From: a bacterium
GTDB lineage: Bacteria > Zhuqueibacterota > Zhuqueibacteria > Residuimicrobiales > Residuimicrobiaceae
Length of the DNA stretch: 36,516 bases
NCBI GenBank assembly: GCA_012523655.1
Contig: JAAYTV010000504.1
Coordinates: 1-36,516 of the forward strand
Reading direction: 5' to 3'
The notes beneath the pieces were generated by a model. That model saw only the letters and a program-made list of their open reading frames with translations, did not search any database and was not told the origin of the DNA. A program made the translations under genes and the position numbers. Shown piece by piece: positions 13,852-33,397 of this stretch; the stretch's first letter is position 1; each line of letters starts with the position of its first letter.

Positions 13852-14871
13852 TTAAAAATCAAATCCCAATGAAAAACGGTGCACGGCGTTTAAAATGCCG
13901 AAATCCAGATAAGCGTAGTCGATGCGTAGGTTTACGGTCGACAGCATATGATAGGCCAGACCGCCGCCGAGGGTCACCCCCTCCTCGCTGTCCTTGAGAA
14001 AAAGGGATTTGTAACCGGCGCGGACAAATATGCTGTTGTACAACGCGTATTCAGCGCCGACGTTAACATATTCCGCATTGTCGCTGGGATGCACGGCATC
14101 CACGGCGCAGGTCAGTCGGTGACGGGCTCGGTTGATCACGTCCAGCGCGGCGCCCACCCGGAAGATGAGCGGCATGGACCAGTTATCGGTCTGCAGATGG
14201 GCAATGATCTTGTCGTTGTTGCCGGCGGTCGTAGGGCTGACATCATAGTTGACCTGAGTGTCGATGCCCTGCAAACGCATTTTGCTGCCGAAATTGGAGA
14301 TGCTCATCCCCAGTCGCATATCATGCAGCTGAGTGGTGAACAGCACGCCCACATCCAGCGCCATGGCTGAGGCGCTCATGTGCCACAGTTTTTGCTGCAC
14401 ATATTTGCCGGTGAAGCCGATGGAGAAACGATCGGTGAGGCTGCGGCTGTAGCTGCCGCTGAGCGCCAGATCAGTAGAGCCGAAATACTCCCCTGTGCCC
14501 TCGGGATAAAAAATCGTCCGTACCTGCATTTCATCCATGCTCAAGGAAGTAACGCTGAGCCCGATGGCATCAGCGGAGGACAGAGGAATGGACACGCCCG
14601 CGTGGTCAAAGGCTATATCGGCGATCCATTGCGTATGGCTCATGGTCACCATGGTTTTGTTCAACCGTGAGAGCCCGGCTGGATTCCAGTACAGTGCTGT
14701 GGCGTCATCCGCGGTCGCCACAAATGCCCCGCCCATGGCCAGAGCCCGACCGCCGACCTCGATGGCCAGGAACGGCGCTGCGCTGGTGCCGACTTTGGAC
14801 ACCGCCTGCGCCTGCAGATCGCCGGCGCCCATCAAGGCAACCACGACAAAAAGAAAAAATTTTATTTTCAT
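13852..14871 (-). CDS. PorV/PorQ-family outer-membrane beta-barrel (module 1)
   Basis: Signal peptide MKIKFFLFVVVALMGAGDLQAQA. Family-typical N-terminus GTSAAPFLAIEVGGRALAMGGAFVATADDATALYWNPAGLSRL. Alternating beta-strand pattern ending in the aromatic LGFDF. GAGGAG SD. The start lies 15 nt after the upstream gene's stop. Confidence 0.8.
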   Translation of the reverse strand: MKIKFFLFVVVALMGAGDLQAQAVSKVGTSAAPFLAIEVGGRALAMGGAFVATADDATALYWNPAGLSRLNKTMVTMSHTQWIADIAFDHAGVSIPLSSADAIGLSVTSLSMDEMQVRTIFYPEGTGEYFGSTDLALSGSYSRSLTDRFSIGFTGKYVQQKLWHMSASAMALDVGVLFTTQLHDMRLGMSISNFGSKMRLQGIDTQVNYDVSPTTAGNNDKIIAHLQTDNWSMPLIFRVGAALDVINRARHRLTCAVDAVHPSDNAEYVNVGAEYALYNSIFVRAGYKSLFLKDSEEGVTLGGGLAYHMLSTVNLRIDYAYLDFGILNAVHRFSLGFDF

Positions 14872-14886
14872 TGGTTTCGGTCTCCT

Positions 14887-17800
14887 CTACTTGATCACGC
14901 CAAATTTGCCGATTTTGGAGCCGATCCCCGGCGCATCTACGTGATAGATGTACACACCGTACGCGATCTCCATGCCGTCTTTGGAGAGCAGGTTCCACGA
15001 TTCAGAACCGTCATTGATGAGACTGTCGTGCTCGAGAGTGGCCACCAGATAACCGCGCACGGTGAAAATTTTAATGGTGCATTGAGCCGGCAGATGGATG
15101 AAATCGATCTTGCGTTCTCCACGCCCCGATTTGAACACATGCTGCGGCTCCCAGGCGGCGGTCACGACATAGGGATTGGGCACCACAGCGATGCGGTTCA
15201 GGGCCGAATCGCTGCCGGCCTTTTGCTTGTCGATGTAGGGCGCATGGCTGGTGAAGGTGAACTGATCGCTGGAGGTGAATGGTTTGGTGATCGAGAGATT
15301 GAACACATCGCCGGCCTTGGGATGGATGGCGCGCGGAATGGTCGCCACCACGGTGGTATCCCGTTTGATGTGCGGAATGCCCAGCGTGTCGACCCAGGTG
15401 TGGGTGGTGATGTTCAAAACCAGGGAATCCGTCGGCGCCCAGAACTTGACCTGCCAGGTGCCCCGATATCGGCCGCCGATGTTCACCAGCGGAACGATGA
15501 TGTCCTGATCGGACAGCACGCCGGCGGGATTGACATCCTGAAACACAAATTTCACCGAATCACCGGTGGTCGCGTTAAAGACTAAAAAATTCGCCGGCTT
15601 GTTGTTATACGCCTTGGTCACCGTCTGATCGAACACCACCACATGGTAATCATAGGGCACCGGCGTCTTGACGCCGCCGGCTATATACGTGGAAATATAG
15701 CCGGCATAGTTGCACACCGCACGGCCGGCGTCATAGGGTACTTTGTATTTCTCCGCCGCTTGTTTTAGCGCGTTGCCGCGGAACCAGCCAGCCCGGGTCA
15801 GGCTGGTGCGCAGCGTATCCGGAGCCAGAGGATGATCGACCACCACGATCTTGAGACCGTCGAAAAACGGGTTCATCTCCTCGCCGGCTACATAGGTGCT
15901 GGCATAGACGGGGAAATACTGATAGCTGATCTCATAGGTAACCCCGCTCTGCATTCTGCCGCCGGACACTGCGGCGATGGCGCCGCTCTCCTCCCGGATG
16001 GTGTAGTCAACACCGTTTTGCATCACCGCGCCTGTTGCAGGATCCTTTACTACAATGGACGGACGGTACAGATGCCTGTGGTCCAGTGCGACGGCCGTCG
16101 TGTCGGCGACAAACCGCTTCTGCTGCACCGTGTTGTTCAACACGGAAAAAAGAGTGTGCGGATTCGACGATTTGGCGAACGTCGTGTCGTCGAACAGAAT
16201 CCTGTATTCCGTCTGGTCGATGATCTTCATCGGATCCAGCGGCGTCACTTCAATATACCCGGTCCCCGCTCCTTGAGTATGACGGATGGTTGGATTGGTG
16301 ACCAGCGTACTCAGGGTGGTCGGCGCCACATAGCCGGCTGCCGGCGCGTTGGGAACCGCCTTGACCGTGTTGATGTCCAAGGCAATGACCTCGCCCAGCA
16401 CATTGGTGCGGATGCGCTTGGCGCACACAGAGGGCGTGATCGGCAATAGGTTGGGGATCTCCGAAATGCCTCGGCTGTAAAAATCCTCATCATACCCCTG
16501 GTCATAGGAACAGACCGCATAATAGTAAGTCTGGCCATTCTGCACCGACGTATCGGTCCAGGTGTAGCGCAGCCCGGTGTTGCTGCCCATATTCAGCTGC
16601 AGCCCGTCGAGACCGATAGGATGCGGTCCTTCGAGCGAATCCAATTTATCGAATTGAGCGATCGGCTTGTCAAAGATCTTGTTGCCATAGGCGTTGGTGA
16701 TCACATAGCTCTCAGTAAAGCCGGCATCGGTGCTGCGGAAGATCATGTAGCCTTCAAAATCCTTGCCATAGATGGGATCGCGGGTGAGTTCTTCAGCCCG
16801 TTTATCCCAATACAGGGTGACCTGACGATCGCCGGCCACCGCCGTGACCGTCGGCTTTTCAGGAGGTTTGGCGAAGTTATAGTCCGCATCATAGATCTTT
16901 TGCATCGTTTTAGCATTGCGCAGCAGATCATCGTAATCCTCGCCCAGGACCAAGGCGATGGCGAACTTGCGCTGATTGTTGGGATCGCCCAGTGGCGGCA
17001 ATTGAAAATAGGCCGTGGCATAGAGAAAGGTGAGATCCACGGTTTGCATGATCTCGCTGAAATTGCCCGGCACGGTTTGCAGCCAGACACTTTCATCGTT
17101 GTCCATGACGATGCCGGGATAGGCGGCAGCGGTGAAACTGGTCAATCCCAGCTGGTCGGATTCGCTGTTGTCACTCATCTCGAAATTAGGCTCCGCCACC
17201 CCCAGGACGTAATCCGCATCCGGTTTGCCGTTGCCCTCGGTGCCGTCTGGATCCGGGCCTGGGTAGCCGATCATGCCCGGCGCCAGGCCGTCCAGTCCGA
17301 CGTCGTCCAGGATTGGATTCCAATCTCCGTCATTATCGATGCCATCAGCCTGGGATTCATCGACCAGGCCGTCCTCGTCGTCATCCTTGCCATTCAATGG
17401 ATCACCGGGGGATTCCAAATAGCGGAAGCCGAAATAGGCCGGCGGACCGCCCCAGGCGCCCTTGTTGTCGTGATCCCATTGATAGACGATATCTTCGGTT
17501 TTGTTGAAATAGGCGTCATCGTCCTTTTGATCGCCGTCATCGCCCACATCCGCGTCGCCGTACATGCCGAACACCATCTTGGTGTAATTGGTGGTGCTGT
17601 TGTTGGTTACCCAATAGGTCCAGATGATCAGATCCTCTGCCGCCGGGTGCGCCCATTGATAGCCGCGCACGGCGATCTCCAGCCCCAGTCCGCGGATGGT
17701 GGTGTCGATTTTAGAGGGCAGAAACTTGAATTCATCGTTATAATAGTCGTTCATCCGGTAATAGGTCTCCTGATCAGCGCGGATAAAAGCGCCGTACTGA

Positions 17801-18336
17801 CCGTTCCAGTAAGGAATGCCAGTAGAAGGATCATACCAGCTCTTTTTGTCCGGCCAGCGCCAGGGCCAGCTGTCCGGTTTGCCGTCCTGATTGTCATCCA
17901 GCGCATCGCTGATGGCGATATAGGGCTGATTTTCTTCGGCATATCCGGGCAACGGCTCAAAGGCATAGAATCCGCCCGTGGGCCGGCCATCAGCCACACC
18001 GCTGGACGATGCACCGTCGCTGAAAATATGCCGGCGCTGGCCCAGCCGGTCCACCACTTCGGCGCCGATGACCGGGGTGAATTCGGCAAAGTAGCTGTGG
18101 CCGTTGGCGCCCTTGGGATAGACGCCGGATTCGACGCGACGGTTGGTCCAATCGCCGATGGATCCATAGTTATAGAACAGCGTACTGATCCGGTTGCCGT
18201 CCAGCGTGCCCTCCTTGCGGTCGGCATGCGCGGTGCTTTTGTTGAGACGGCCGTTTTGATCGGCATAGCCTCCCGAGGCAGCTCTACTGCTTGCGGTAAT
18301 AAGAAAGAATAAAATGCAGCATAGAATTCTTTTCAC
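14887..18336 (-). CDS. large secreted protein of unknown function (L1): conserved N-terminal region, acidic Ca-binding-like cluster, FN3 domain, variant T9SS-like C-terminal domain
   Basis: GTG start with GGAGG SD. Signal peptide MKRILCCILFFLITASSRA. Blocks conserved with paralogue L2: GNRISTLFYNYGSIG, RGYQWAH, YLESPGDP..GKDDDEDGLVDES. FN3-like region PTVTAVAGDRQVTLYWD...YYYAVCSYD. C-terminus VVPNPY...CTIKIFTVRG...WNLLSKDG..AYGVYIYHV...GKFGVIK. No HExxH or other catalytic motif recognised. Confidence 0.85.
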   Translation of the reverse strand: MKRILCCILFFLITASSRAASGGYADQNGRLNKSTAHADRKEGTLDGNRISTLFYNYGSIGDWTNRRVESGVYPKGANGHSYFAEFTPVIGAEVVDRLGQRRHIFSDGASSSGVADGRPTGGFYAFEPLPGYAEENQPYIAISDALDDNQDGKPDSWPWRWPDKKSWYDPSTGIPYWNGQYGAFIRADQETYYRMNDYYNDEFKFLPSKIDTTIRGLGLEIAVRGYQWAHPAAEDLIIWTYWVTNNSTTNYTKMVFGMYGDADVGDDGDQKDDDAYFNKTEDIVYQWDHDNKGAWGGPPAYFGFRYLESPGDPLNGKDDDEDGLVDESQADGIDNDGDWNPILDDVGLDGLAPGMIGYPGPDPDGTEGNGKPDADYVLGVAEPNFEMSDNSESDQLGLTSFTAAAYPGIVMDNDESVWLQTVPGNFSEIMQTVDLTFLYATAYFQLPPLGDPNNQRKFAIALVLGEDYDDLLRNAKTMQKIYDADYNFAKPPEKPTVTAVAGDRQVTLYWDKRAEELTRDPIYGKDFEGYMIFRSTDAGFTESYVITNAYGNKIFDKPIAQFDKLDSLEGPHPIGLDGLQLNMGSNTGLRYTWTDTSVQNGQTYYYAVCSYDQGYDEDFYSRGISEIPNLLPITPSVCAKRIRTNVLGEVIALDINTVKAVPNAPAAGYVAPTTLSTLVTNPTIRHTQGAGTGYIEVTPLDPMKIIDQTEYRILFDDTTFAKSSNPHTLFSVLNNTVQQKRFVADTTAVALDHRHLYRPSIVVKDPATGAVMQNGVDYTIREESGAIAAVSGGRMQSGVTYEISYQYFPVYASTYVAGEEMNPFFDGLKIVVVDHPLAPDTLRTSLTRAGWFRGNALKQAAEKYKVPYDAGRAVCNYAGYISTYIAGGVKTPVPYDYHVVVFDQTVTKAYNNKPANFLVFNATTGDSVKFVFQDVNPAGVLSDQDIIVPLVNIGGRYRGTWQVKFWAPTDSLVLNITTHTWVDTLGIPHIKRDTTVVATIPRAIHPKAGDVFNLSITKPFTSSDQFTFTSHAPYIDKQKAGSDSALNRIAVVPNPYVVTAAWEPQHVFKSGRGERKIDFIHLPAQCTIKIFTVRGYLVATLEHDSLINDGSESWNLLSKDGMEIAYGVYIYHVDAPGIGSKIGKFGVIK

Positions 18337-18387
18337 TGAAACCTCCTCCTGACGTAACCAGCCTAACCTAGCGAAGGTTCAATCTAC

Positions 18388-21261
18388 TTAAAAACCGACC
18401 GAAAGGCCGAGCTTGATTTCACGCGGCGATGAATAATAATCCGGCCGCCGCAGATATTCGGACAACGTGTTGGGACCAATGGACTCCGGCGTATACATGG
18501 GGATCAACGAATAGGTGGCGCGGCCGGTGTCGTTGTACACATAATCCTCATTGCGCCGGTCAAACAGGTTGTACACCACCAGATAGACACCGAAGCGCAT
18601 GCCGGAGAGCGCAAACATTTTGTGCGCCCGCATATCGACATTGAGCTGATAGGGCTTGCGGCCGGCGTTTTCAAATGCCGTCCGTGTGCCGCGATACTCC
18701 GGCGTATACGGCAAACCCGAGCCCAATTGGGCGATAAAACTGACATTCCAGTTATTGGGAACGCCGAGGTTCACCGAGCCGTTCAGCGTATGGCGTTGAT
18801 CCCAATCCAGGGCGACCAATTGCTTCTCCGGCTCTATGTCGTTGGAGGTGTCATAAAATGTGGCTTCCGGATCCGAGGCGTTGCCTTCGGAGACGGAATA
18901 GGTGTAATCCAATTTGGCCGACAGCATATTGGCATAGCGCTTGTCCAAAGTCAAAGTGATGCCGCGGATGTTGCCGTAATCGCGGTTGATATACAGCGCA
19001 TAGCGGTCGCCGGCGGCGTAGGTCTCGATGATTTTTGTACCCAGCAGATTGCGCACGTCCTTGTAAAATCCCGTCACGTTGAGTCCCAGGTCTTCGGTCA
19101 ACTGCTGCTGCAAGCCGATCTCATAACCCACCGTGCGCTGCGGTTCCAGGTCGGCGTTGCCCATGATCGTGTTAAGACCGGAGACCACTTCAAAATCTGG
19201 ATTGGAATAGAGATAACTGTACGCTGGGATCTGAAGAAAATGACCATAGGAGAAATGAATGACGCCGCGTTCGGTGATCGGAAAGGCGATACCTACACGC
19301 GGGCTGATCTGATATTTGGCGGATGACTTTTTAAACCAGGTGGCGCTGCCGGATCCCCGCAGCGGTTCGCCGGTATCCGGATCGATGATGGCCGCCGGAC
19401 CGTTCAAACGCACCCGGTCGCCGCCTATGGTGGTCGCCAGATGGCCTTCAGGGATAACGCCGTTCATGGGTTTGCCCGTATTGGGATCGATATAGGTTCT
19501 TTCGCCGGTGTTCGGATCAAGCCGGTAGGGCATCTTGACCAGCATGGTGTCCTGCCCCTGGACAGCCCATACCGATTTATATCGGTTGGGCACCCATAAG
19601 GAGGGATCAGACTGGTCGGTGGGTAGCTGCGAGTTGGAGTCGAAATATTCGAACCGAAGGCCCACATTGACGATCATATCGCGCAATTCGATCTTGTCCT
19701 GTAAAAAACCAGAGAGTTGGTAGGGACGGCGCACATAGCGGTCGTGCGCAGTCAGCGCGATATCCGGTATTTTCGGTTTCCAATCGGTGGATTGATCGAT
19801 CTGAATGGTAAAGCTGTCTCCGAACAGCTTGTCCTTTTCAAATTCCATACCCGCTTTGAGCTGATGAATTTTACTGACCTGGCTGACGATTTCAAACTTG
19901 CCGATATGGGTCAGAGTGTAGCGCTCATAATGGCCCAGGTTGACGCCGCCGGCATAAAAACGATAGCCGCTGCTGGCGTTGAGCCGGTCCGAGCTGACAT
20001 AGCGGGGATCCAATGGATCCTTAAACACATAAGACTGGCCATAGTTGTAAAAGTTGGAATAGCGGAAAGCATAAAACGTTTTCGGCGACAGGGTGTGCGT
20101 CAGAGTGAACACGTTGTTAAATCCAGATCCCCAGCTGGTGGGTCGTCCGGACGGCGTGTACTTCCATTTGTGGCTGTAGCTCTGGCTGCGCGACCAATCG
20201 GCCAGGCCGCCGAGCGTGACTTTGATGTTGTCAGCCACATTGTAGGCGAATTTCCACTGCCCGGAGAATTTGCGATAGGGGTTCATCGCTACAATGGATC
20301 CGTCGCCGGATTCCTGCCAGTTGGCGGCGGTTTGACTGAAATCGTTCGAGTCGGCGATGGTGAAGCGGTTCTGGCCGTAGAGATAGCCCTCCTGGTCCAG
20401 GGCGCGGCCGGAAAAGAAAAAGCTCACTTTATCCCGAGTGAACGGCACCGGTCCGCTGAGGTTGCCGCGCAGGTCCTTGTTGGACAGTGGGGTCACGTCG
20501 TCGATATGATCATAGAGTTCGGTGTCGGTGCTGACGTAATCGCCGAGATAGCCCACGACCTCGCCGGTCAATTTTTTTCCGCCCTCTTTAGTGACGATGT
20601 TGACGATGCCGGACATCGCCTGCCCATACTCGGCGTTGAACGTTCCGCTGACAAACTCCATCTCCTGGATGGCTTCATTCTCCACGCTCAGCGCCATGCC
20701 CGAGTTGTACGGATCGGTAACGCTGATACCATCAACCATGTAGCGCACCTCGCCTGAGCGGCCTCCGCGGATATGCAGCTCGCCACCGCTCCCCTGCACG
20801 ACGCCGGCCTGTAGGGTCAACACCTGATTAAAATTTTCCACCGGCAGCTGCTTGATGTCCTCAGTGGCCACCACCGCGTGGCTGGAAGTGACGTCCTTGC
20901 GCACCAGCGGTCGTTCCGCCACCACAGTTACGGTTTCGTTGATATCCAGAACCGTGGAAGAGAGTTGAAAGTTCAACGGGGTGGTCAGGTCGATGGTGAC
21001 CTTGACGCCGGTTTGCCGCAGGCTCTGATAACCGATCATCTTGGCAACCACGTTATACACGCCGGGCGGAATATTCAGAATGGCGTATTCACCGTTGATA
21101 TCGGTGGCAGCGCCCAGCGTGGTGCCTTCCAGCAGGATGTTGACGCCGGGCAGTCCAGTGCGGCTGTTCTGGTCGATCACCCTGCCGGCGATTTTTCCCG
21201 TGGTGCCGGCCCACAGCATGGCAGGCAGCAACATCATGATGGCGCATTTGAGCATCCGCAT
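18388..21261 (-). CDS. TonB-dependent receptor with N-terminal CarboxypepD_reg-like domain (module 1)
   Basis: Signal peptide. CarboxypepD_reg pattern GKIAGRVIDQ..GLPGVNILLEGT..ATDINGEYAILNIPPGVY. TonB-box-like ETVTVVAE. Plug motifs (IRGGR, VDGISV, FNAEYGQAMSGIVNIVTK). Long barrel ending in LGLSVGF. AGGAGGAG SD. Confidence 0.9.
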   Translation of the reverse strand: MRMLKCAIMMLLPAMLWAGTTGKIAGRVIDQNSRTGLPGVNILLEGTTLGAATDINGEYAILNIPPGVYNVVAKMIGYQSLRQTGVKVTIDLTTPLNFQLSSTVLDINETVTVVAERPLVRKDVTSSHAVVATEDIKQLPVENFNQVLTLQAGVVQGSGGELHIRGGRSGEVRYMVDGISVTDPYNSGMALSVENEAIQEMEFVSGTFNAEYGQAMSGIVNIVTKEGGKKLTGEVVGYLGDYVSTDTELYDHIDDVTPLSNKDLRGNLSGPVPFTRDKVSFFFSGRALDQEGYLYGQNRFTIADSNDFSQTAANWQESGDGSIVAMNPYRKFSGQWKFAYNVADNIKVTLGGLADWSRSQSYSHKWKYTPSGRPTSWGSGFNNVFTLTHTLSPKTFYAFRYSNFYNYGQSYVFKDPLDPRYVSSDRLNASSGYRFYAGGVNLGHYERYTLTHIGKFEIVSQVSKIHQLKAGMEFEKDKLFGDSFTIQIDQSTDWKPKIPDIALTAHDRYVRRPYQLSGFLQDKIELRDMIVNVGLRFEYFDSNSQLPTDQSDPSLWVPNRYKSVWAVQGQDTMLVKMPYRLDPNTGERTYIDPNTGKPMNGVIPEGHLATTIGGDRVRLNGPAAIIDPDTGEPLRGSGSATWFKKSSAKYQISPRVGIAFPITERGVIHFSYGHFLQIPAYSYLYSNPDFEVVSGLNTIMGNADLEPQRTVGYEIGLQQQLTEDLGLNVTGFYKDVRNLLGTKIIETYAAGDRYALYINRDYGNIRGITLTLDKRYANMLSAKLDYTYSVSEGNASDPEATFYDTSNDIEPEKQLVALDWDQRHTLNGSVNLGVPNNWNVSFIAQLGSGLPYTPEYRGTRTAFENAGRKPYQLNVDMRAHKMFALSGMRFGVYLVVYNLFDRRNEDYVYNDTGRATYSLIPMYTPESIGPNTLSEYLRRPDYYSSPREIKLGLSVGF

Positions 21262-21445
21262 CTAATCTACTCCTCCTGATGATGAAAAGAGAATGTAAAA
21301 ACAACGTCAGAACATGGCGTTCGGCATGGGCCGGCTTATAGGGTTCAAAAAAGGCACTCCGATGGGATAGGGTTGGGCCTTTTCAACCCGGTATTCAGCG
21401 AAACAAAACAAACAGGTCTGCAAGGGGGAAGGTCCGCCGGCCGGG

Positions 21446-22456
21446 CTAAAATTCAATGCCCAACGACAGCCGTTGCGCGTTGGCCAGCCGGCCCCACTCC
21501 GCATAGGCGTAATCCAGTTTGAAGGTCATGGCGCCGGGTATTTGATAGCGCAGGCCGCCGCCGAAGGTCAAGCCATCCTCAGCGTCCAAGCCCCAGGCGG
21601 ACTGGTAACCTGCGCGCAACGCCACCAATTCGCGAAAGCTGTACTCGATGCCTGCGTTCACACGCTCGCTATTGTCGTTCGGATGGAGTGCATCGAGGGC
21701 AACGGTCATGCGATGGCGACGGAGTTGCAGCGGATCAATGGCCACGCCGACGCGAAACAGCAGCGGCAGAGGCCAGCTCTGGGTTTCCAGATGGGCCGGC
21801 AGTGTGGCGTTGCTGCCGCTGGCCTCGGGGTTGATGTCGACAAAAATTTTAGAATCCTTGCCGGCCATACGCATCTTGGTGCCGAAATTGGCGATATTCA
21901 TGCCGATGCGCATGCCGTAAAACTGCGTGGTGAACAGCGTGCCCACGTCAAAGGCAAAGCCGTTGGCGTTCATATGGTAGATGCCCTGGCGGATATACTT
22001 GAAATTCATGCCGATGGAAAACCGGTCGGTAAGGCTGCGGCTGTAGGTGATGGTTGCGCAGGCATCCGATGCGCCGAAATATTCCCCCGTGCCTTCGGGC
22101 TCTGTTTCCGTCCGCACCATCATCTCATCCATAGACAGGATGGTCAGACTTGCGGCGATCAGGCCCATATTTCCCATCCGGATCACGACGCCGCCGAAAT
22201 CATAGTTGATGTCCGCCAGCCATTCACTGTGAGCCAGAAGGGCCTCGTGCGCGGTCAACCGGGCCAGGCCGGCCGGATTCCAATAAATGGCGGAAGCGTC
22301 ATTGGCCACAGCCACATAAGCGCTGCCCATAGCCGCAGCCCGGCTGCCGACGCCGATCTTGAGAAACTGGGCGGCCGTGGTTCCGGTCTTGGACACGGCG
22401 AACAAGGCGCTGCCGGTGAACAGGAAGGCTATGAATAGAAAGACTCTCGTTTTCAT
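21446..22456 (-). CDS. PorV/PorQ-family outer-membrane beta-barrel (module 2)
   Basis: Signal peptide MKTRVFLFIAFLFTGSALFA. N-terminus GTTAAQFLKIGVGSRAAAMGSAYVAVANDASAIYWNPAGLARL. Aligns end-to-end with the 13852-14871 product (e.g. SLTDRFSIG, LFTTQ, PLLFRVG). Ends LGIEF. Confidence 0.8.
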   Translation of the reverse strand: MKTRVFLFIAFLFTGSALFAVSKTGTTAAQFLKIGVGSRAAAMGSAYVAVANDASAIYWNPAGLARLTAHEALLAHSEWLADINYDFGGVVIRMGNMGLIAASLTILSMDEMMVRTETEPEGTGEYFGASDACATITYSRSLTDRFSIGMNFKYIRQGIYHMNANGFAFDVGTLFTTQFYGMRIGMNIANFGTKMRMAGKDSKIFVDINPEASGSNATLPAHLETQSWPLPLLFRVGVAIDPLQLRRHRMTVALDALHPNDNSERVNAGIEYSFRELVALRAGYQSAWGLDAEDGLTFGGGLRYQIPGAMTFKLDYAYAEWGRLANAQRLSLGIEF

Positions 22457-22492
22457 GGATTTTAATCATCCTTGTAGACTATGTGCACTAGG

Positions 22493-25400
22493 TTACTTGA
22501 TCACCGCAAATTTGCCCACATATTCGCCGATGCCGGGAGCGTCCACATGATACAGGTAAACGCCGTAGGCGATGTCCATGCGATCTTTGTTGAGCAGATC
22601 CCATGCCTGCGAACCGTCCTCCAGACCAGCCTGATGTTCCAGAGTGACTACATGATCCCCGGACACGGTGTAAATCCGAATGGTGCACGTCGCCGGCAGA
22701 TGGATGAAATAGAGAAGCCGATCGCCGCGGCCGCCGGCTTGGGTTCGGGGCTGTCGTTCGAACTCGGACGCACTGATGTACGGATTAGGCACTACAGCGA
22801 TGGAGCTCAACGCCGATCGCGCCTTTTCCGCCCGAACCGTCGAGGCCATGGTCTGGAAGGTAAAGACATCGCGCCAGCTGAAGGGTTTGCGCACTGCAAT
22901 GAGGTAGACATCGCCGGCTTTGGGAGCAATGGGGGGAACCGCGACGGTATCCACCGGAACCCCATTGCGGTAGACGATGGAATCCGCATGCAAAAAGAAG
23001 CGCACCTGCCAGGTGCCGGTGGTCCTGCCGTTGATCAGCGTGGTCGGCACCACCTTATCCTGATCGCCGATGGTCGAGTCATTGTTTACGTCGAAAAACA
23101 CAAACGGCACATAGGTTTTTTCAGTGATATTGTAGACGCGAAATTTAGCCGCCTTGGCGTTGACGGATTTCTCCTGGAATTTATCCGATATCTCGATGCG
23201 GTAATCAGCCGGATAGGCGACGCCGCTGTTGGGATACTTTTCCACAATGCTCTGATAATTGCAGCGGCCGGCGATGAACCGGCTGCGCCGACGATCCGCC
23301 AGCAGGCTGTCGTTCTTGACCACGACCTTGAGTCCATGCTCGTAGGGGTTGCGATCGCTGCCGTCCAGATAGGGGCTGGAACTGATCAGCCGGCGGTTAT
23401 AGCAAAACACATAGTCGGCGTTCGGCCGCATCACCATGGTGTCCAATACCGTAATCCGTCCTTCGCTATAGGAGACGGCATAATCCCGGTCCTCGATGAA
23501 CGCCGTATTCTGGCGGTTGGTTACGGTCAACGAACCGGCGATCAAATGACCGTAGGCCAGGTTGACGTCCACCACGCGCACGGAATCCACCGGCCGGGGC
23601 GCCCCATTCACGTTTTCCCAGCGCGTATACTTCCAGCGTCGTCTCAACTGCAGGGTATCCCGTTCCACCAGATCGCGGTCGTACATGTTGAACACCGTCT
23701 TGTTTTGCGTCGAATCATCGAATGAAATAACATAGCGATGGCCGTCGCGGATCTTATTCGGGTCGATCAGGTCCACGGTCACGATGCCGGTGCCGGGGCC
23801 GTCCTCATTTTGCGTGGGCTTGAGCGCGCCGAACAGCCGCGGCGGTTCGTAGCCGGCGACCGGCGCCTGGGGAACGACGATGGCGGTGTTGACGTCCGGC
23901 ACATAATTGCCCGAATTCGGCGGATCCTCAAAAAAGGATTTGGTGCATTCGGAGGGAGCGATCTTTAAGCTGTCGCCGCGGTCATAGGACACCACGGCAT
24001 AAAAATACCGCTGACCGTTCACCAAACCTGAATCCACATAAGAGTGAGACAGGCCGGTGTCGTCGCCCTGGTAATAATGAATGCCGGTGGTGGTTTCGAT
24101 TTTATGCGGCCCGCGGATGCCGTTCTTTAAATCAAAGCGGGCGATGGGTTTCCACATCTTGGGATTGCCCAGCGCGTCGGTGATGGTGAATGATTCCAGA
24201 AAGCCGACATCCGTGCCGCGGTAAATGGCGTAGCCTTCAAAATCTTTGCCGTAAATCGGATCGCGCGAATCCTCCGCTGCACTGTCCCAGTAGAGCGTCA
24301 CTTTGCCGTCGCCCGGCACAGCGGTCAACCGGGGTTTGTTGGGCGCTTTGGCGAAACGGTAGCCGGCGTCATAGATCTCTTGAATGGTGCGCGCGTTGCG
24401 GTACAGATCCTGAATATCGTAGCCGAAGAACAGTGCGATGGAAAAGCGCCGGCTGTCGCCGCGGGCCATTTGAACCGGGCCCGAGGCGTACATGAACACA
24501 TTGTCCTTGGTCTGATCAAAGGTGGAGTCGATGATGCCCGAGACCATCAGGCGCCAGGTGTCCTCATCCTGGGAAGGCCAGATCGTACCGTATTCAAAAA
24601 CAGAAAAAGAGGTTAAACCGATCTGGTCCGCCTCATCCAAATCTTTTTCATCGAAATTGGGTTCGCCGTGCGTGGGCACACCGTCGCGTTCGCCGCGATC
24701 CCAGTACTCATTGCCGTCCTGAATGCCGTTGCCGTTCAAATCGCCGTCTACGCCATCTGCGCCGACGTCGTCAAAGCGCGGGTCCCAGTCGTGATCGTCG
24801 TCGATGTTGTTCTGCATCGACTCATCCACCATTCCGTCTTCGTCGTTATCCTTGCCATCATACGGTTCACCCGGGCTTTCCAAAAACTTGTAACCGAGAT
24901 AACCGGGACGCCAGCCGTCCGGGGAACCGCGAAAATCATGATCCCATCCGTAGACCATATCCAGTTTGGTATCATAAAAGCCGTCATCATCGCTGTAATC
25001 ATCCGCACCGCCGATGTGGGGATCGCCGTACATGCCGACGTAGACTTTTTTTATCGTGTCAGCGCCGACATAGCGCACATCATAGATGAAAAAGATGCAG
25101 TCCTGGGCAAGGGTATGCGCCCATTGATAGCCGCGGACGCGCACGTCCATGCCCAGGCCGCGGCGGTCCGGATTGCCGATCGGATCCGGCCAGTAGAGAA
25201 ATTCCGCATTGGTCGAGTCGTCCATCACAAAAAAACTTTCCTGATCCGCGGTGATCACGTTGACACCGTACTCGCCCCACCAGGAGCCGTCGAACTTGCC
25301 ATCATGGTTATCGTCCACATGCGCCCAACTGACCGGCCAGGTGTTGGGTTGATGGCTCATCGCGATATAGGATTGCCCCGGGCGGGCGTAGCCGGATTTG

Positions 25401-25825
25401 GGCTCCCATCCCCACACGGCGCCCTGGGTGGAACGATCCCCACCGGTATCCAGTCCGTCGGAGATGATGTGGCGGCGCTGGCGGTTCTTGTCGACGATCT
25501 CACCGGCCACCAGCATGCCGAATTCGAACGCATAATCGCGGTTGCTGGTGCCTGCCGGCCAGACCAGCGAACGGGAGTTGCTCGGCTGGCCGATGGAGCC
25601 ATAGTTGTAGAAAACCGTAGAGATGCGATTGCCGTTATGGGTTCCTTCACGCCGTTCGTCGTGCCGGCCGAAGGATTTGGCCAGGCCGTCCCGCCTGGCG
25701 CGCCAGGCCTCCCATTCTGACGCCGGCGCGTTTTTGGATGGGATCGAGGTGATCCACTCATCCTGAGCCAAAACCAGGGAACAGAGGATAAACAGTAAGA
25801 CGGTAAACATGCGAGCCATTGGCAT
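22493..25825 (-). CDS. large secreted protein of unknown function (L2), paralogue of L1
   Basis: Signal peptide (M)ARMFTVLLFILCSLVLA. Same conserved blocks as L1: GNRISTVFYNYGSIG, RGYQWAH, FLESPGEP..GKDNDEDGMVDES, RDPIYGKDFEGYAIYRGTD, YFYAVVSYD. Same C-terminal domain, ending GKFAVIK. ATG 25819 (third codon) has better SD spacing (AAGG, 7 nt) than ATG 25825. Confidence 0.85.
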   Translation of the reverse strand: MPMARMFTVLLFILCSLVLAQDEWITSIPSKNAPASEWEAWRARRDGLAKSFGRHDERREGTHNGNRISTVFYNYGSIGQPSNSRSLVWPAGTSNRDYAFEFGMLVAGEIVDKNRQRRHIISDGLDTGGDRSTQGAVWGWEPKSGYARPGQSYIAMSHQPNTWPVSWAHVDDNHDGKFDGSWWGEYGVNVITADQESFFVMDDSTNAEFLYWPDPIGNPDRRGLGMDVRVRGYQWAHTLAQDCIFFIYDVRYVGADTIKKVYVGMYGDPHIGGADDYSDDDGFYDTKLDMVYGWDHDFRGSPDGWRPGYLGYKFLESPGEPYDGKDNDEDGMVDESMQNNIDDDHDWDPRFDDVGADGVDGDLNGNGIQDGNEYWDRGERDGVPTHGEPNFDEKDLDEADQIGLTSFSVFEYGTIWPSQDEDTWRLMVSGIIDSTFDQTKDNVFMYASGPVQMARGDSRRFSIALFFGYDIQDLYRNARTIQEIYDAGYRFAKAPNKPRLTAVPGDGKVTLYWDSAAEDSRDPIYGKDFEGYAIYRGTDVGFLESFTITDALGNPKMWKPIARFDLKNGIRGPHKIETTTGIHYYQGDDTGLSHSYVDSGLVNGQRYFYAVVSYDRGDSLKIAPSECTKSFFEDPPNSGNYVPDVNTAIVVPQAPVAGYEPPRLFGALKPTQNEDGPGTGIVTVDLIDPNKIRDGHRYVISFDDSTQNKTVFNMYDRDLVERDTLQLRRRWKYTRWENVNGAPRPVDSVRVVDVNLAYGHLIAGSLTVTNRQNTAFIEDRDYAVSYSEGRITVLDTMVMRPNADYVFCYNRRLISSSPYLDGSDRNPYEHGLKVVVKNDSLLADRRRSRFIAGRCNYQSIVEKYPNSGVAYPADYRIEISDKFQEKSVNAKAAKFRVYNITEKTYVPFVFFDVNNDSTIGDQDKVVPTTLINGRTTGTWQVRFFLHADSIVYRNGVPVDTVAVPPIAPKAGDVYLIAVRKPFSWRDVFTFQTMASTVRAEKARSALSSIAVVPNPYISASEFERQPRTQAGGRGDRLLYFIHLPATCTIRIYTVSGDHVVTLEHQAGLEDGSQAWDLLNKDRMDIAYGVYLYHVDAPGIGEYVGKFAVIK

Positions 25826-25929
25826 ACCTTTATGTTAAAATCCGTTGTCGCACTGAGCTGTGTTGCACGGCCGGTACGTCCCTATCATTCAGGTGGCAGC
25901 CGGTCTGACGGCAACCGGCTGCGGAACGA

Positions 25930-28821
25930 TCAAAATCCCAACGCCACGCCCACCCGCACCTCGCGCGGCGGGCTGTAATAGGTCGGACGCGACAAATAGT
26001 CCGACAGATAATGGCGGGCGAATTCTCCGCCGTGATCCGCCGTATAGGTGGGTATCAGCGAATAAGTCGCCCGGCCGGTATCAGAATAGACATAGTCCTC
26101 GTTCATGCGATCGAACAGGTTGTAGATTTTCAGCAACAGCGAGGTCCTGATGTGGCCGATATAAAAATCCTTGTGCGCATTGATGTCAAACGAATATTGC
26201 ATGGGTTTGCGCTCGCTGTTCTCATAGTCGGTGCGCATGCCCTGGAGATCCGGCGTGTAGGGCAATCCCGAACCCACATGTCCCAGCAAGCTGAGGCACC
26301 AGTCGCGCGGCTTGCTCAGGGTGACGCTGAGGTTCAGAGTGTGCCGCTGATCCCAGTCCACGGGCACGACAAACCGTTGACTCTCACGCGGCGGATCGCT
26401 CTGGGCATCCTCAAAAGCCGCTGTGGGCGAGGAGGCGTTGGATTCGGAAATCTGATACGTATAATCCATGGCAGCGGAGAGCAGGCCGCGGCCGCGCCGT
26501 TTCTCCAGAGAAAAGGTGATGCCCTGCACATTGCCGTAATCCTGATTGGCATAGCGGCCATAATAATCGCCGCGGGAATAGAGCTCGAACAACTCAGATC
26601 CGAGCAGATCGTTGACGTCTTTATAGAAACAGATGGCCTCCACGCCCACGTCCTCCGCCACCTGCTGTTTCAGGCCGATCTCGTAGGTGACAGTCGATTG
26701 CGGATTCAGATTGGCGTTGCCGAGAATGCTGTTAAAGCGGCCGCTGATCACCTCAAATTCCGGATTGGCGTACAGATAGGCAAAGGGCGGAATCTGGAAA
26801 AAATGGCCGTAGGAAAAATAGATGGTGCCGCGGTCCGTAATCGGATAGGCGATGCCGAGGCGGGGGCTCCACTGCTGCTTGGCCTCCACGTCGACCAGCC
26901 GCAAATCATCGAGCGAGGTACGGCTGGCGGAAATCAGCATTTTGTCTCGGTTGTCCGCCGCCACTTTCCAATTGGAATGGAAATAGTCATAGCGCAAACC
27001 AAGATTGACGATCATGTCCTTGAGCTCGATTTTATCCTGGAGATATCCGGAGAACTCGAACGGTTTGCGATGATCGTAGCGGTTATGGCCGGTGCTGGTC
27101 TCCGGTGTGTGAATGGTCGGCACCCAATCGTAGGTGTCGCGAATGTCCACGGTGTAGGCCAGGGAGGAGAGATCGTGTTGGCGCAGTTCCGCACCCAGCT
27201 TGAACTGATGGGTCCGGTTCCACTGATTGGTCAGGTCAAAACGGCCGACGTAGGTCAGATACCGCGAACGGCTGTAGCTCTTGTCCTGGCCGCCGCCGTA
27301 AAATTCGCGGCCCGGGATTTGGGTCAGAATGTTCGGCAGATAGCGCGCATCCTGCCAATCCTCATAGAGGTACTCTTTGTCGATGTTGGCATTGGCATTG
27401 ACCTTCAGGGTATAAAACGTGGCGGCGGAGAGGGAATGAGTCCAATCCAGGGTGTGAGAAAAGGCCCGGCCATAGTGAGTGGGCCGGCCATCCGGATTGT
27501 ACTTGAAGGTATGATCATACGTTTGATTTTTCACATTCGAATAGAGCAGACCGTAGCGGAGGATCATATTGCTGTTGAACCGGTAGGTCAGTTTGGTCTG
27601 CAGAGATAATTTCCGATAGGGGTTCATGGCCGCCAGGCTGTTGTCGCCGCTGAAACCGTTGTCGCGCCGACCATTCAGATTGTAATCGGTAAACGCTTCG
27701 CCTTCGTCATAGGCGCCGTTGCGGTTGTCGTCATAATAGGGTTCGACAAAATTCAACCGGCCGGTGTTCCAGATGCCATCGCCATTTGTGTCTGTAAAGG
27801 ACTCGTCGCTGTCCCAACGCCCGTTCGCGTTGGCGTCGGTGAACGGTTCAGTGTTGTAGGGGCTGTTGACCAGGCTGAGCACCGCGGTGGAATCGACATA
27901 GACGACATCATTGGGTGAATGCTCGCGACGACCATACAACCACCCCTGACTGTCGAACCAACGGCCGGAAGCGAAAAAGGTCAGTTTTTTGGAAATGCCG
28001 GGAATCGGACCGGAGAGGGAAAGATCCGCGTTCATCAGGCTCGCGGGGTTGATCTTTTCAATATTGAGAAAAGTGCTTTTATGGGACGATACCTTATCGC
28101 CGAGATAGAACTCGGCGTTGCCGCTGTATTTTTCACCGCCGTCCTTGGTGACGATGTTCACCAGACCCGACATGGCCTGGCCGTATTCTGCGTTGAATGT
28201 GCCGCTGACCACCTGCAGCTCCTGAATGGCGGTATTCTCCACAGACACCGAAAGACCGCCCCACATGGGATTGGATACCGCCACACCGTCGATCATGTAG
28301 CCGATCTCGCTGGCGCGGCCGCCACGGATGTGCAGAGCGCCGTTGGCCCCTTCGGTGATGCCGGCTTTGGTCTTGAGCACATCGGTGAAGGATTCCACCG
28401 GCATCTCCTTGATCTCCTCTGTGGTGACGATCGCGCGGCCGGAGGTCACATCCTTTTGCACCATCGGCCGTTCAGCGACCACGGTGATTTCGTTGCCGAT
28501 ATCCAGAACCGTGGAGGACAGGTTGAAATCGATGGTGGTCGTGTGATCGGTCTGCACCAACACTTCTCGCTGGATCACCGGCGTGTAGCCCATCATGGCG
28601 GCGCGCAGGTTATACCGGCCCGGCGGCACATTGATGATGAAATAATCGCCGTCCAGACTGGTGACCGCGCCCATGCTGGTGCCTTCCAGGATCAGGTTGA
28701 CGCCGGGCAGCGGTTCTTTGTTACCCGCGTCCTTGACCACGCCGGCGATCTTGCCGGTGGTGCCGGCCCACAGAAGCGCAGGCAGGCAAAGAAAAAACAG
28801 TGTTCTCTTGAAGCTGACCAT
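25930..28821 (-). CDS. TonB-dependent receptor with CarboxypepD_reg-like domain and an extra Ca-binding-like loop insertion (module 2)
   Basis: Paralogue of 18388-21261. Shared blocks: WAGTTGKIAG, FNAEYGQAMSGLVNIVTK, AMNPYRK, DWDQRHTLN, YNLFDRMNEDYVYSDTGRATYSLIP. Ends VGVALGF. Start set at ATG 28821 (MVSFKRTLFF...; GAGG 6 nt upstream). ATG 28833 (MRLLMVSF...) is possible. The ORF-track start at 29007 runs into the repeat array and is rejected. Confidence 0.9.
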   Translation of the reverse strand: MVSFKRTLFFLCLPALLWAGTTGKIAGVVKDAGNKEPLPGVNLILEGTSMGAVTSLDGDYFIINVPPGRYNLRAAMMGYTPVIQREVLVQTDHTTTIDFNLSSTVLDIGNEITVVAERPMVQKDVTSGRAIVTTEEIKEMPVESFTDVLKTKAGITEGANGALHIRGGRASEIGYMIDGVAVSNPMWGGLSVSVENTAIQELQVVSGTFNAEYGQAMSGLVNIVTKDGGEKYSGNAEFYLGDKVSSHKSTFLNIEKINPASLMNADLSLSGPIPGISKKLTFFASGRWFDSQGWLYGRREHSPNDVVYVDSTAVLSLVNSPYNTEPFTDANANGRWDSDESFTDTNGDGIWNTGRLNFVEPYYDDNRNGAYDEGEAFTDYNLNGRRDNGFSGDNSLAAMNPYRKLSLQTKLTYRFNSNMILRYGLLYSNVKNQTYDHTFKYNPDGRPTHYGRAFSHTLDWTHSLSAATFYTLKVNANANIDKEYLYEDWQDARYLPNILTQIPGREFYGGGQDKSYSRSRYLTYVGRFDLTNQWNRTHQFKLGAELRQHDLSSLAYTVDIRDTYDWVPTIHTPETSTGHNRYDHRKPFEFSGYLQDKIELKDMIVNLGLRYDYFHSNWKVAADNRDKMLISASRTSLDDLRLVDVEAKQQWSPRLGIAYPITDRGTIYFSYGHFFQIPPFAYLYANPEFEVISGRFNSILGNANLNPQSTVTYEIGLKQQVAEDVGVEAICFYKDVNDLLGSELFELYSRGDYYGRYANQDYGNVQGITFSLEKRRGRGLLSAAMDYTYQISESNASSPTAAFEDAQSDPPRESQRFVVPVDWDQRHTLNLSVTLSKPRDWCLSLLGHVGSGLPYTPDLQGMRTDYENSERKPMQYSFDINAHKDFYIGHIRTSLLLKIYNLFDRMNEDYVYSDTGRATYSLIPTYTADHGGEFARHYLSDYLSRPTYYSPPREVRVGVALGF

Positions 28822-28852
28822 GAGTAACCTCATGTGAAAATGAAATAGGTGA

Positions 28853-28881
28853 AACCTATTCGTTGTTAGTAAATAAAGCAA
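28853..28881 (-). promoter_or_regulatory. sigma70-like promoter candidate for module 2
   Basis: Minus strand: TTGCTT (28881-28876), 17-nt spacer, TAGGTT (28858-28853), about 25-35 nt upstream of the receptor start. Confidence 0.25.
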
Positions 28882-28955
28882 GCATCTTGGCCGTTGCTGT
28901 GTCGCATGCGATAGCCAAGGGCGAGGGATCCAGCGTCGCACAGAGCCTTCCCATT

Positions 28956-29029
28956 TGTCATTCTGAGCCCGCAACCCTGTATTGCAACAATCCCGATGCC
29001 GTTGCAAAGGGCGAAGAATCTAGCGTCGC
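28956..29029. repeat. repeat unit A, copy A1 (74 nt; variant with perfect internal hairpin)
   Basis: tgtcattctgagcccgcaaccctgtattGcaacaatCccgatgccgtTgcAaagggcgaagaatctagcgtcgc. A degenerate half-copy (A0) lies at 28914-28945. An 18-nt unit C (ttcacactttcgcttttt) follows at 29037-29054. Confidence 0.85.
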
Positions 29030-29080
29030 GCGAAGCTTCACACTTTCGCTTTTTCCGTTCGTCGCCGATTCCCTTCCTTT

Positions 29081-29259
29081 TGTCCTTCTGAGCCCGCAAC
29101 CCTGTATTCCAACAATACCGATGCCGTCGCGAAGGGCGAAGAATCCAGCGTCGCACAGAACCATGCCCGTTAACTTGTTCAGTTCGTCGCTAGATCCTTC
29201 GGCGCTCAGAGTCTGTGAACAGACGCTGCCGTTCACTGTTTTGCGCCTCAGGAGGACAA
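29081..29259. repeat. 179-nt direct repeat, left copy (units A2 + B1), flanking the GIY-YIG gene
   Basis: Same length as 29632-29810. By manual alignment there are about 8 mismatches over 179 nt. Unit B contains the hairpin cagaGTCTG-tgaa-CAGACgctg. Confidence 0.9.
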
Positions 29260-29285
29260 GACTGGAAATGGTTTTTTAGTTGAGC

Positions 29286-30185: not shown

Positions 30186-30212
30186 GGCGGGGCGGTACAT
30201 GCCCGCCCCGCC
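30186..30212 (-). terminator. GC-rich terminator hairpin immediately downstream of the FG-GAP gene
   Basis: GGCGGGGCGG / CCGCCCCGCC, a perfect 10-bp stem with a 7-nt loop, 15 nt after the stop codon. The minus strand continues TTTCTCATT. Confidence 0.55.
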
Positions 30213-33200: not shown

Positions 33201-33235
33201 AGCGGTACAATCATTTGCTTTAACGTTTGATTCAT
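30227..33235 (-). CDS. FG-GAP/VCBS-repeat protein with canonical T9SS type-A C-terminal sorting domain
   Basis: Start at ATG 33235 (MNQTLKQMIVPLILVLLCTVALMAA signal peptide) with AAGGAGGA SD. About 14 DxDxDG-type loops, e.g. GDTDNDGNIEI, ADVDKDGKNEL, GDADNDGLTDI, GDFDRDGRREI, ADVDNDGMVEL, NDIDQDGIKEL. The C-terminus YPNPFNATTTIEYTLP...VCVYNTMGQVVRTL...WDGMDNAGRAVASGMYLYTL...MTLMK is typical Por_Secre_tail. Confidence 0.9.
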   Translation of the reverse strand: MNQTLKQMIVPLILVLLCTVALMAAENGENKFVKTFGMAAPDQGRTAWDIVVLPDLNDNGVNEVFVACDNDNPAVNNGNGCDYYVLERQDNDSHKVLWHSFVDNVVEEYSATYGDTDNDGNIEIITCMRPGVVGAPSLLFFEVDKSINGYPLPPAPTLAYDLTAGTGWARAFTAKVADVDKDGKNELMVLMRPYNATGTAGTRAGLILQEYSGDLTFPDFREEFKVTGFGGTPYGITTGDADNDGLTDIYFGEYDYAGLFVLENTAPDSYKVHHHFNFTPATDNASRHDMGIYDFNGDGFTELVYATNVSGEVFIITNPGEIALMDSTCAHLITTLPYSIYGIALGDQDWTGSGNDGRDIYCAADSGLYDIEYTGGEGGDVTDPANWAVHQIASGDYFFAVGVGDFDRDGRREIVACSASEESPELVQYFEHEPLPNFGVKVVWNDPSQTVDPADAIKGNPRGFAAGSDVDKDGKKELIATQYSGRLVMYEVVGDNALELVWVDSTAKKVCAAASGGSNPRSVTVADVDRNGKEEIIAFMGSTAAHADSLGIWFFEWNGQDNGFGAIGGGPTFILPLNQINPALTDGNRTETIAAADVDNDGMVELLLANDGTPNTNDAFVILSCVDGTLESGFPVFKTEGTNIRGTANGWAGSPVGATAADLNGDGTKEAVFLPWDKGKIILAQSVKPDSFMWRTLAMDRYETSTDDGVFYVSVGVYDVDKDGKDELMGSLYNTTSGRVLLLNAPDGSIMDIDPMNNSHVARIREASGGAPFNNALGDLNGDGKAELFFTNYARGQVNALAYNDAGDITNPANWITSEGFYDNSYVYKPKFADFGDSTVFKKALTEWNDNNISQIHGSFGIKIANDIDQDGIKELVFSALQSYWSGAWLFVMEPTTTGVKLNQWRVITPDEYKLALAYPNPFNATTTIEYTLPVNKQIKVCVYNTMGQVVRTLVNAQMPAGTHRIVWDGMDNAGRAVASGMYLYTLEYGNFKQVQRMTLMK

Positions 33236-33397
33236 CGGTTCCTCCTTAAACATAAGCCAACCACCAATTCGTTAATACGTCCACCTTGTCAATGGCCGGA
33301 TATCACCTCCTCGACGGATGTTTGTCGTCTGCGAGCTTTAAATGAGGATAAAATAAAAAATAATACATACGGTTAGAAAAAGAGAACATAATTAAAA

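Follow-up and report, generated by a model that had tools for sequence, protein, structure and literature searches.

In the Fibrobacteres–Chlorobi–Bacteroidetes (FCB) superphylum, nutrient capture is dominated by TonB-dependent transporters (TBDTs) that work with surface partners, and the partners described so far in this group are, to our knowledge, SusD-type lipoproteins. Here, a stretch of 36,516 nt from a bacterium of the phylum Zhuqueibacterota (assembly GCA_012523655.1, contig JAAYTV010000504.1; hereafter the window) was analysed, in which two consecutive triads on the minus strand each code for a TBDT (R), a protein of about 1100 residues from a family without domain annotation (L) and an outer-membrane barrel of the PorV/PorQ family (B). 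The original prediction, made from these letters alone, had regarded the arrangement as a Sus-like capture and import module built from type IX secretion system (T9SS) parts. The triad was found to be conserved in gene order across several phyla, and its three members diversified together.

The closest mechanistic precedents come from the T9SS itself. In Porphyromonas gingivalis, the C-terminal domains (CTDs) of the exported proteins PorU and PorZ are not removed and stay bound to the barrels PorV and PorQ, respectively (PMC10202324). Protection of the CTD against cleavage has been proposed as a role of cognate PorV-like barrels (PMC10202324; PMC11285876). In Flavobacterium johnsoniae, the gene for a type-B cargo such as SprB is linked to that of its own carrier barrel, in this case SprF, which is needed first for secretion and then for anchoring (PMC12618676; PMC10994853); cargo exits the SprA translocon on its carrier and is afterwards anchored by alternative carriers (PMC10994853). 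Type-A CTDs, which form a seven-stranded Ig-like beta-sandwich whose last strand carries a conserved Lys (PMC11285876), are all reported to use a single general PorV in F. johnsoniae. SprA has been reported in representatives of all examined FCB phyla save Chlorobiota (PMC12611786).

The closest functional precedents are the SusCD-type pairs and the proteobacterial loci that combine a TonB-dependent receptor with the type XI secretion system (T11SS). In the SusC/SusD and BtuB–BtuG pairs of Bacteroidota, a TBDT extended by a CarboxypepD_reg domain is encoded directly upstream of its surface partner, and the pairs have expanded by duplication; the order of R and L has the same form. In tbpAB-slam and hrpABC loci, a receptor, a Slam/T11SS protein of the DUF560 family and a cargo of the TbpB or hemophilin type are clustered with the same three-part logic, the substrates being metals and haem (PMC8406197).

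Both triads of the window were recovered at the positions originally claimed when the six minus-strand open reading frames (ORFs) were checked. Module 2 consists of R2 (25930..28821, 963 aa), L2 (22493..25825, 1110 aa) and B2 (21446..22456, 336 aa, ending in Phe), and module 1 of R1 (18388..21261, 957 aa), L1 (14887..18336, 1149 aa, GTG start) and B1 (13852..14871, 339 aa); the successive gaps are 104, 36, 184, 51 and 15 nt, as had been stated. The R2 ORF can be extended to a TTG at 29007, but the ATG at 28821 was kept, in agreement with the earlier choice, because it gives a signal peptide and an alignment with the N-terminus of R1. By BLASTP, L2 and L1 were 41% identical from end to end (E 0), B2 and B1 50% identical over their full length (E 9e-128), and for R2 and R1 the identity was 53% in the first 300 residues and 40% in the barrel. 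The paralogues thus align along their whole length (40–53% identity), and every motif block quoted in their support was present in the alignments. At the DNA level, 2689 of the 7410 nt of module 1 could be aligned to module 2, with a mean identity of 68%. As only about one third of the DNA is still alignable, the duplication is old, which agrees with the earlier claim.

L2 homologues numbered 2,267 in a database clustered at 90%, all of them named 'hypothetical', and in an exhaustive profile search (E<=1e-30) the L family comprised no fewer than 1,525 clusters at 50% identity. When one genome per species was scanned for loci, at least 580 stretches coding for L came up, and synteny was counted over 75 kept loci together with those collected earlier. 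The titles of the records that carry L name KSB1, Caldithrix/Calditrichota, Marinimicrobia/Neomarinimicrobiota/Fidelibacterota, Ignavibacteriota/Melioribacteraceae and Delongbacteria, and Zhuqueibacterota was named by an L match in the protein search; P0125 sits on a 4.69-Mb contig of a metagenome-assembled genome. An R homologue lay directly upstream of L on the same strand in 69 of the 71 testable cases, a B homologue directly downstream in 71 of 72, and both flanked L in 64 of 66, one of the two exceptions being an ORF-extension artefact. Therefore, the R-L-B order, recurring in 64/66 testable loci of other organisms, is far beyond chance, and the expectation that L would be flanked by a TBDT upstream and a PorV-like gene downstream was confirmed. 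The same order was kept in six further contexts annotated from precomputed Pfam matches, with gaps of 9–191 nt, and two much more distant relatives of L were also preceded by R. Two stretches, L069 (3884–9144) and L086 (845–6481), contained two tandem L-like genes without R or B between them; the former is possibly one frameshifted gene, and the contig of the latter stops inside the second L.

Two or more L genes were present in 20 of 78 loci, revealing recurrent tandem duplication of the triad. Such expansion is as seen in uptake loci and was counted in favour of a role in nutrient uptake. Across 61 triads, the pairwise distances of the three proteins were correlated (R-L 0.92, R-B 0.90, L-B 0.79), and the nearest triad from another locus was identical for R, L and B in 41 of the 61. 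R tracked the paralogue type of L more tightly than B did (Spearman 0.94 vs 0.66). In the window, the three proteins of module 2 were all nearest to the first triad of another Zhuqueibacterota locus (L001), and those of module 1 to the second one there, with the order preserved. Therefore, the double triad is older than the split of these lineages, and the earlier claim that the duplication had been kept as whole triads held. As judged from these sequence distances, the paralogue type is inherited as a unit across R, L and B.

The receptor assignment of the original prediction was upheld by profile searches. In R2, PF13715, PF13620, PF07715 and PF00593 all exceeded their cutoffs, the last with 98 bits; in R1, CarboxypepD_reg and Plug (PF07715) were matched, and its barrel aligned along that of R2 at the 40% identity given above. 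Both proteins carry a signal peptide, which in R2 is followed by a CarboxypepD_reg-like N-terminal domain (residues 25–107), a TonB-box-like segment, ITVVAERP (residues 112–119; window 28465–28488, minus strand), a plug (residues 122–217) and a barrel with a final Phe. The TonB-box-like segment, with the consensus EEVVVVAERPMVQK, follows the N-terminal domain and was conserved across 61 R homologues. By their plug, barrel and TonB-box features, R1 and R2 are thus predicted to be TBDTs. Neither qualifies as SusC/RagA: on TIGR04056 they scored 55.5 (R2) and 62 bits (R1) against a cutoff of 368, with a match confined to the N-terminal ~210 positions, and no SusC or RagA chain was found among the PDB sequence matches of R. 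Several R homologues matched PF25183 (OMP_b-brl_4, cutoff 30), which we take to be an Oar-like barrel family, including those of loci L083 (64.5 bits) and L007 (47.7 bits); R1 and R2 gave no match to it at E<=1.

The body of L resisted assignment by sequence. Pfam and NCBIfam searches with full-length L1 and L2 and with 37 individual family members gave no family and nothing recurrent, and when L2 and the family profile were searched against PDB sequences, a marginal FN3 match was all that appeared. In L2, a signal peptide of the signal peptidase I (SPI) type is followed by an N-terminal beta-supersandwich (residues ~55–495), an FN3-like region (~498–640), a variable beta-rich region (~650–1000) and the C-terminal domain. 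The full-length AlphaFold2 (AF2) model was nearly all beta (predicted local distance difference test score, pLDDT, 74.8; predicted TM-score, pTM, 0.63), and the N-terminal domain modelled alone reached a pLDDT of 82.8 and a pTM of 0.84. In Foldseek, this domain consistently matched the non-catalytic beta-supersandwich of GH15, GH94, GH116, GH149 and GH161 enzymes (probability 1.0, TMq 0.30–0.42, identity 5–10%), whereas matches of the full-length model were dominated by FN3 and Ig chains with very poor TM-scores, uninformative on function. In those enzymes the supersandwich precedes an (alpha/alpha)6 barrel, which L does not have; no enzymatic role is proposed for L, as the catalytic barrel is missing and the matched fold is a non-catalytic accessory domain. 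A SusD-like identity was rejected: L had no SusD Pfam match, its model is all beta, and it lacks a lipobox. By inspection of 37 proteins, the N-termini were hydrophobic and of the SPI type, with a lipobox in 0/37, and L is on this sequence evidence not a lipoprotein.

Conservation and variation fell in different parts of L. Invariant residues clustered in the N-terminal half and included three acidic DxDxD-type loops (L2 residues 323–360; window 24746–24859, minus strand), whereas length variation across the family mapped to residues ~710–965. Long variants of 1350–1630 aa (P0033–P0047 and P0078–P0115; loci L007, L066, L070, L076 and L079) carry PF07494 Reg_prop repeats, inserted at about reference residue 955, immediately N-terminal to the CTD, and in short variants (~975 aa) residues ~710–810 are deleted. 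This part of L, the distal half, therefore acts as a module that can be exchanged. In R2, an insertion at residues ~330–390 (window 27650–27830), which has no counterpart in R1, contains D/N-x-D/N-G repeats (…TDANANGRWDSDESFTDTNGDGIWNTG…YDDNRNGAYDEGEAFTDYNLNGRRDNG…) that are similar to the acidic loops of Ca-binding type that are invariant in L (DNDEDGMVDE, DDDHDWDP and DDVGADG). This likeness could point to a Ca-mediated contact, or could merely reflect a common loop type.

The two barrels fitted the PorV-like identity that had been proposed for them. On the PorV/PorQ family model NF033709 (cutoff 90), B2 and B1 scored 236.8 and 239.8 bits over the full model length, and on PF19572 (PorV, cutoff 27) 40.7 and 45.3 bits, respectively; the sole solved relative found by PDB sequence search was PorV of F. 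johnsoniae (6h3i_F, E 6e-9). In contrast, the scores stayed below the cutoffs of the equivalog models for PorV (NF033710, 88–94 bits vs 250), PorQ (NF033711, 93–105 vs 220) and PorV2 (NF052325, 93–94 vs 325), and B therefore constitutes a separate subfamily. A FadL identity was rejected, since B1 barely passed PF03349 (31.2 vs 29.7 bits) compared with 240 bits for the PorV/PorQ family, a marginal score expected within a FadL-related superfamily; PorP/SprF was not matched in the Pfam and NCBIfam scans. From its family, B is predicted to bind the CTD of a T9SS cargo. NCBIfam holds, under near-consecutive identifiers, a 'T9SS-dependent M6-like inactivated metalloprotease' (NF052323, ~1043 aa plus CTD) and the 'putative type IX sorting system protein PorV2' (NF052325); the tail of the former was matched by 10 of 43 L tails, and B, as noted, reached 93 bits on the latter. 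These two models may represent another pair of a large cargo with a private PorV, and the literature yielded no paper on PorV2 as meant here.

The T9SS link of L lies in its tail (L2 residues 1003–1110, 22493..22819; L1 approximately 14887–15213; both on the minus strand). The AF2 model of the L2 tail was a seven-strand sandwich (strands 1010–1013, 1037–1041, 1046–1053, 1058–1065, 1073–1076, 1088–1096 and 1100–1108) with a pLDDT of about 86–92; the tail has a disordered insertion of ~20 residues after VVPNPY and ends in GKFAVIK, and a C-terminal Lys was present in 60 of 61 L sequences. Taken singly, the tails of the window were weak matches: L2 reached 13.8 bits on TIGR04183 (cutoff 23, E 0.044), and L1 did not match that model, giving CHU_C at E 0.095 and the C-termini of PorU (E 5e-4) and PorZ (E 6e-4). 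All sub-threshold matches, which for L2 went to the tails of PorU, PorZ and TIGR04183 only, were to T9SS CTDs. At the family level the signal was clear. With 43 L tails, PorU was matched by 41, PorZ by 38 and TIGR04183 by 26 at E<=0.1 (best E 1.4e-6), whereas the type-B model TIGR04131 was matched by only two (best E 0.026). A profile of these tails aligned by hhalign with a profile of 18 CTDs from neighbouring FG-GAP proteins (F, described below) at a probability of 96.8% and E 2.7e-10 over 60 columns; against PDB sequences, it found only PorU (6za2) and PorZ (5m11), at a marginal E of 0.12–0.18. Hence, the CTD that had been claimed for L stood for the family, while the two tails of the window stayed under the TIGR04183 cutoff; the tail is clearly assigned, at the level of the family profiles, to a divergent type-A-like T9SS CTD nearest to the retained CTDs of PorU and PorZ. 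By this likeness, export of L would depend on the T9SS, and by analogy with those two proteins its CTD would be retained on B. A T9SS in the carriers is indirectly suggested by the canonical CTD of the adjacent F and by the reports of SprA from FCB phyla other than Chlorobiota.

When compared with the systems introduced above, the module appears, by profile scores, to belong to none of them: R fails the SusC model, B those of PorV, PorQ and PorV2, and L every model. The proposed L-B pair is like PorZ–PorQ and PorU–PorV in that a T9SS-exported protein would keep its CTD and be held by a barrel of the PorV/PorQ family, but apart from the tail L has no relation to PorZ or PorU, and L and B occur in several copies, side by side, always after a TBDT. 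In contrast to the type-B cargo with PorP/SprF carriers, the CTD of L is type-A-like, B is of the PorV/PorQ family, and no TonB-dependent receptor takes part in the type-B system; compared with the type-A cargo of F. johnsoniae, which shares one PorV, L is encoded beside a private B. Overall, the original interpretation is supported as far as comparative genomics reaches. The term 'Sus-like' stood as an analogy only, since R is not SusC/RagA, and L is an all-beta, non-lipidated protein of ~1100 aa that a CTD with a barrel, instead of a lipid, would anchor; PorZ–PorQ and PorU–PorV docking and the Slam/T11SS loci are closer analogues. The parts of the Slam/T11SS loci are unrelated to the triad in sequence and fold; L is far larger and is no TbpBBD protein, the route would be the T9SS and not the T11SS, and neither DUF560 nor TbpBBD was matched by B or L in the Pfam and NCBIfam scans. 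The literature gave no description of the R-L-B arrangement, in line with the original remark that none was known to its author, nor any statement on a T9SS specifically in KSB1, Zhuqueibacterota or Marinimicrobia, and papers on Caldithrix and Fidelibacter contained nothing relevant to the triad.

On balance, we lean towards the view that each triad is one outer-membrane nutrient-acquisition unit, in which L is exported by the T9SS, docked on B and serves as the capture partner of R. L, with its SPI-type signal peptide, would be exported by Sec and then cross the outer membrane through the T9SS translocon, guided by its CTD, where B would receive this domain as its dedicated carrier. The CTD would stay uncleaved on B, as that of PorZ does on PorQ and that of PorU on PorV, and the docked domain would tether ~1000 residues of all-beta, non-lipidated protein at the cell surface. 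There, L would capture a large or scarce substrate and pass it to the R encoded upstream, to be imported with energy from TonB. Of the two halves of L, the conserved N-terminal one, with its beta-supersandwich, acidic Ca-type loops and FN3 region, probably serves as a constant part in contact with R or the cell surface, and the distal one, variable in length, probably sets the specificity; F, with a canonical cleavable CTD, would be a frequent fourth member. That R, L and B form a stable three-protein machine, in which a T9SS carrier permanently tethers a non-lipidated capture protein or lid over a TBDT, is a bolder proposal, which we make tentatively and would not yet bet on.

The family membership of R and B, the CTD nature of the L tail, the missing lipobox, the strict synteny, the co-diversification and the recurrent duplication of the triad are observations on which this reading is built, and several others weigh against it. 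Dependence on the T9SS, retention of the CTD on B, contact between R and L and the inward direction of transport are inferred. A shared species history explains part of the correlation between the distances of R, L and B. The tails of L in the window are under the curated cutoffs of TIGR04183 and PF18962, so that the CTD call comes from family-level profiles and a predicted fold, and none of the core T9SS genes was found within the 36.5 kb of the window. The models of L are of only moderate confidence and their Foldseek TM-scores are modest, and the most conserved part of L is its N-terminal half, which is odd for a substrate-specific region. Finally, no enzyme, regulator or inner-membrane transporter recurred among the 99 flanking genes surveyed.

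This last result would be expected if L and B formed a surface-display unit, as an adhesin, coat, S-layer-like structure or enzyme scaffold, with R co-transcribed but not a physical partner, importing for example a small product or cofactor loosely tied to the role of L. The long chain of beta-sandwich, FN3 and Ig-like domains in L is typical of adhesins, no substrate-related enzyme or regulator recurs nearby, cognate carrier barrels also anchor the type-B adhesins of the T9SS, and the L-L tandems of L069 and L086 lack an intervening R. Against display alone, R precedes L in 69 of 71 testable cases from several phyla and follows the paralogue type of L more tightly than B does; this near-invariant order and tight tracking are hard to explain without direct functional coupling, and we regard a pure display unit as unlikely, though the most probable of the alternatives.

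R might instead act outwards, exporting or assembling L or F with B as the anchor, with or without the T9SS. The model for this is Oar, a large Myxococcus xanthus TBDT that has, like R, a CarboxypepD_reg-like N-terminal domain and is required for secretion of the protease PopC, so that export by a TBDT is documented (PMC6434023); the PF25183 matches of several R homologues point the same way. Oar, in contrast, is not linked to a CTD cargo or a PorV-like barrel, PF25183 was not matched by R1 or R2 at E<=1, and the CTD of L with a cognate PorV-family carrier already makes up a complete known route of export and anchoring. A folded all-beta protein of 1100 residues also fits poorly through a plugged 22-strand barrel, and the authors of the work on Slam loci judged that in those loci TonB powers uptake, not export (PMC8406197). 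An export function of R is thus very improbable. Slightly less credible still is that L and B stand in for PorZ and PorQ in particular lineages, belonging to the T9SS attachment machinery rather than to uptake, although the L tail is most like those of PorZ and PorU, Foldseek found PorZ (5m11) at a probability of 0.90, B reached 93–105 bits on the PorQ equivalog model and the long L variants carry Reg_prop propeller repeats (PF07494), which the propellers of PorZ resemble. Core secretion machinery is normally single-copy, whereas the triads are tandem-duplicated in many genomes, with paralogues at ~40–50% identity; they are always coupled to a TonB-dependent receptor, which PorZ and PorQ are not, the body of L has no sequence similarity to PorZ, and B stays under the PorQ cutoff (220 bits).

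The genes around the triads were examined for F and for signs of a substrate. F (30227..33253, minus strand; 1008 aa), outside the coordinates given in the original prediction, combines FG-GAP repeats with a canonical type-A CTD, matching FG-GAP_3, FG-GAP, FlgD_ig (43.3 bits vs a cutoff of 27) and Por_Secre_tail (23.9 bits). An F homologue adjoined R in 26 of 44 testable loci, divergent or co-directional, and was present in five of the six annotated contexts; F is part of the conserved neighbourhood and a frequent fourth member. In the window, a terminator-like hairpin with 10 G-C pairs (30186..30212, minus strand) directly follows the F gene and stands between it and the R2 operon. A hairpin scan of the window found none of comparable strength in the gaps within or between the triads. 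Promoter and terminator scanning of the window gave nothing above shuffled expectation, only the hairpin after F being noteworthy, and Rfam had no match there at the gathering threshold. The 1.4-kb gap between F and R2 (28860–30135) holds an ORF of 99 aa resembling a GIY-YIG nuclease (29286–29585, minus strand; 57.6 bits on PF01541), on whose flanks a ~184-nt repeat occurs in four direct copies (64–96% identical) and a 47-nt core in five. GC is lower here (0.51–0.52), and a small insertion, mobile or associated with repeats, seems to part F from the R2 operon in this genome. Upstream of F lie ORFs at 33622–34806, 34875–35585 and 35582–36424, without a Pfam family at E<=0.001; the 394-aa ORF among these upstream genes had a weak match to Phenol_MetA_deg, an outer-membrane beta-barrel family (E 0.014).

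Some 300 nt downstream of B1, on the same strand, are a PhoU-like DUF47 protein (12931–13554) and a PHO4-family phosphate transporter (11797–12828), a pair that was not seen beside the triads in the other loci. Among the 99 flanking genes, the commonest domain was Por_Secre_tail (6/99), followed by a few peptide or amino-acid genes, and the top 25 flanking domains included no carbohydrate-active enzyme. A complete Opp/Dpp-type ABC transporter lies right after B in L005 (14048–19374) and L006, of the GCA_028284905 lineage, comprising SBP_bac_5, two permeases and two ATPases with oligo_HPY, and its first gene begins at the stop of B. Such a transporter was found after B in these two related loci only, with just SBP_bac_5 elsewhere, in 2 of the 99 neighbours, and it is the sole hint of a peptide-like substrate. 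For the module in general, we lean weakly towards a glycan.

If each triad is indeed a capture and uptake unit, then several other FCB phyla, including the marine SAR406 group, which is globally abundant and almost uncultured, would equip a transporter with a protein that the T9SS delivers and that a PorV-like barrel of its own keeps in place. It would widen the roles of T9SS carriers, as type-A-like CTDs could own dedicated PorV-family carriers and be retained. The large L family, with its clusters currently without domain annotation, would gain a working hypothesis and offers testable targets for metaproteomes and metatranscriptomes of ocean and sediment. If, beyond that, R, L and B form the stable three-protein machine, a TBDT would have gained its surface co-receptor in a third, independent way, after lipoproteins such as SusD and BtuG and the Slam-delivered TbpB. 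With more than 1,500 sequence clusters and tandem expansions, the triad would then be a main uptake system for high-molecular-weight nutrients in SAR406/Marinimicrobia, Ignavibacteriota, Calditrichota, KSB1 and related lineages.

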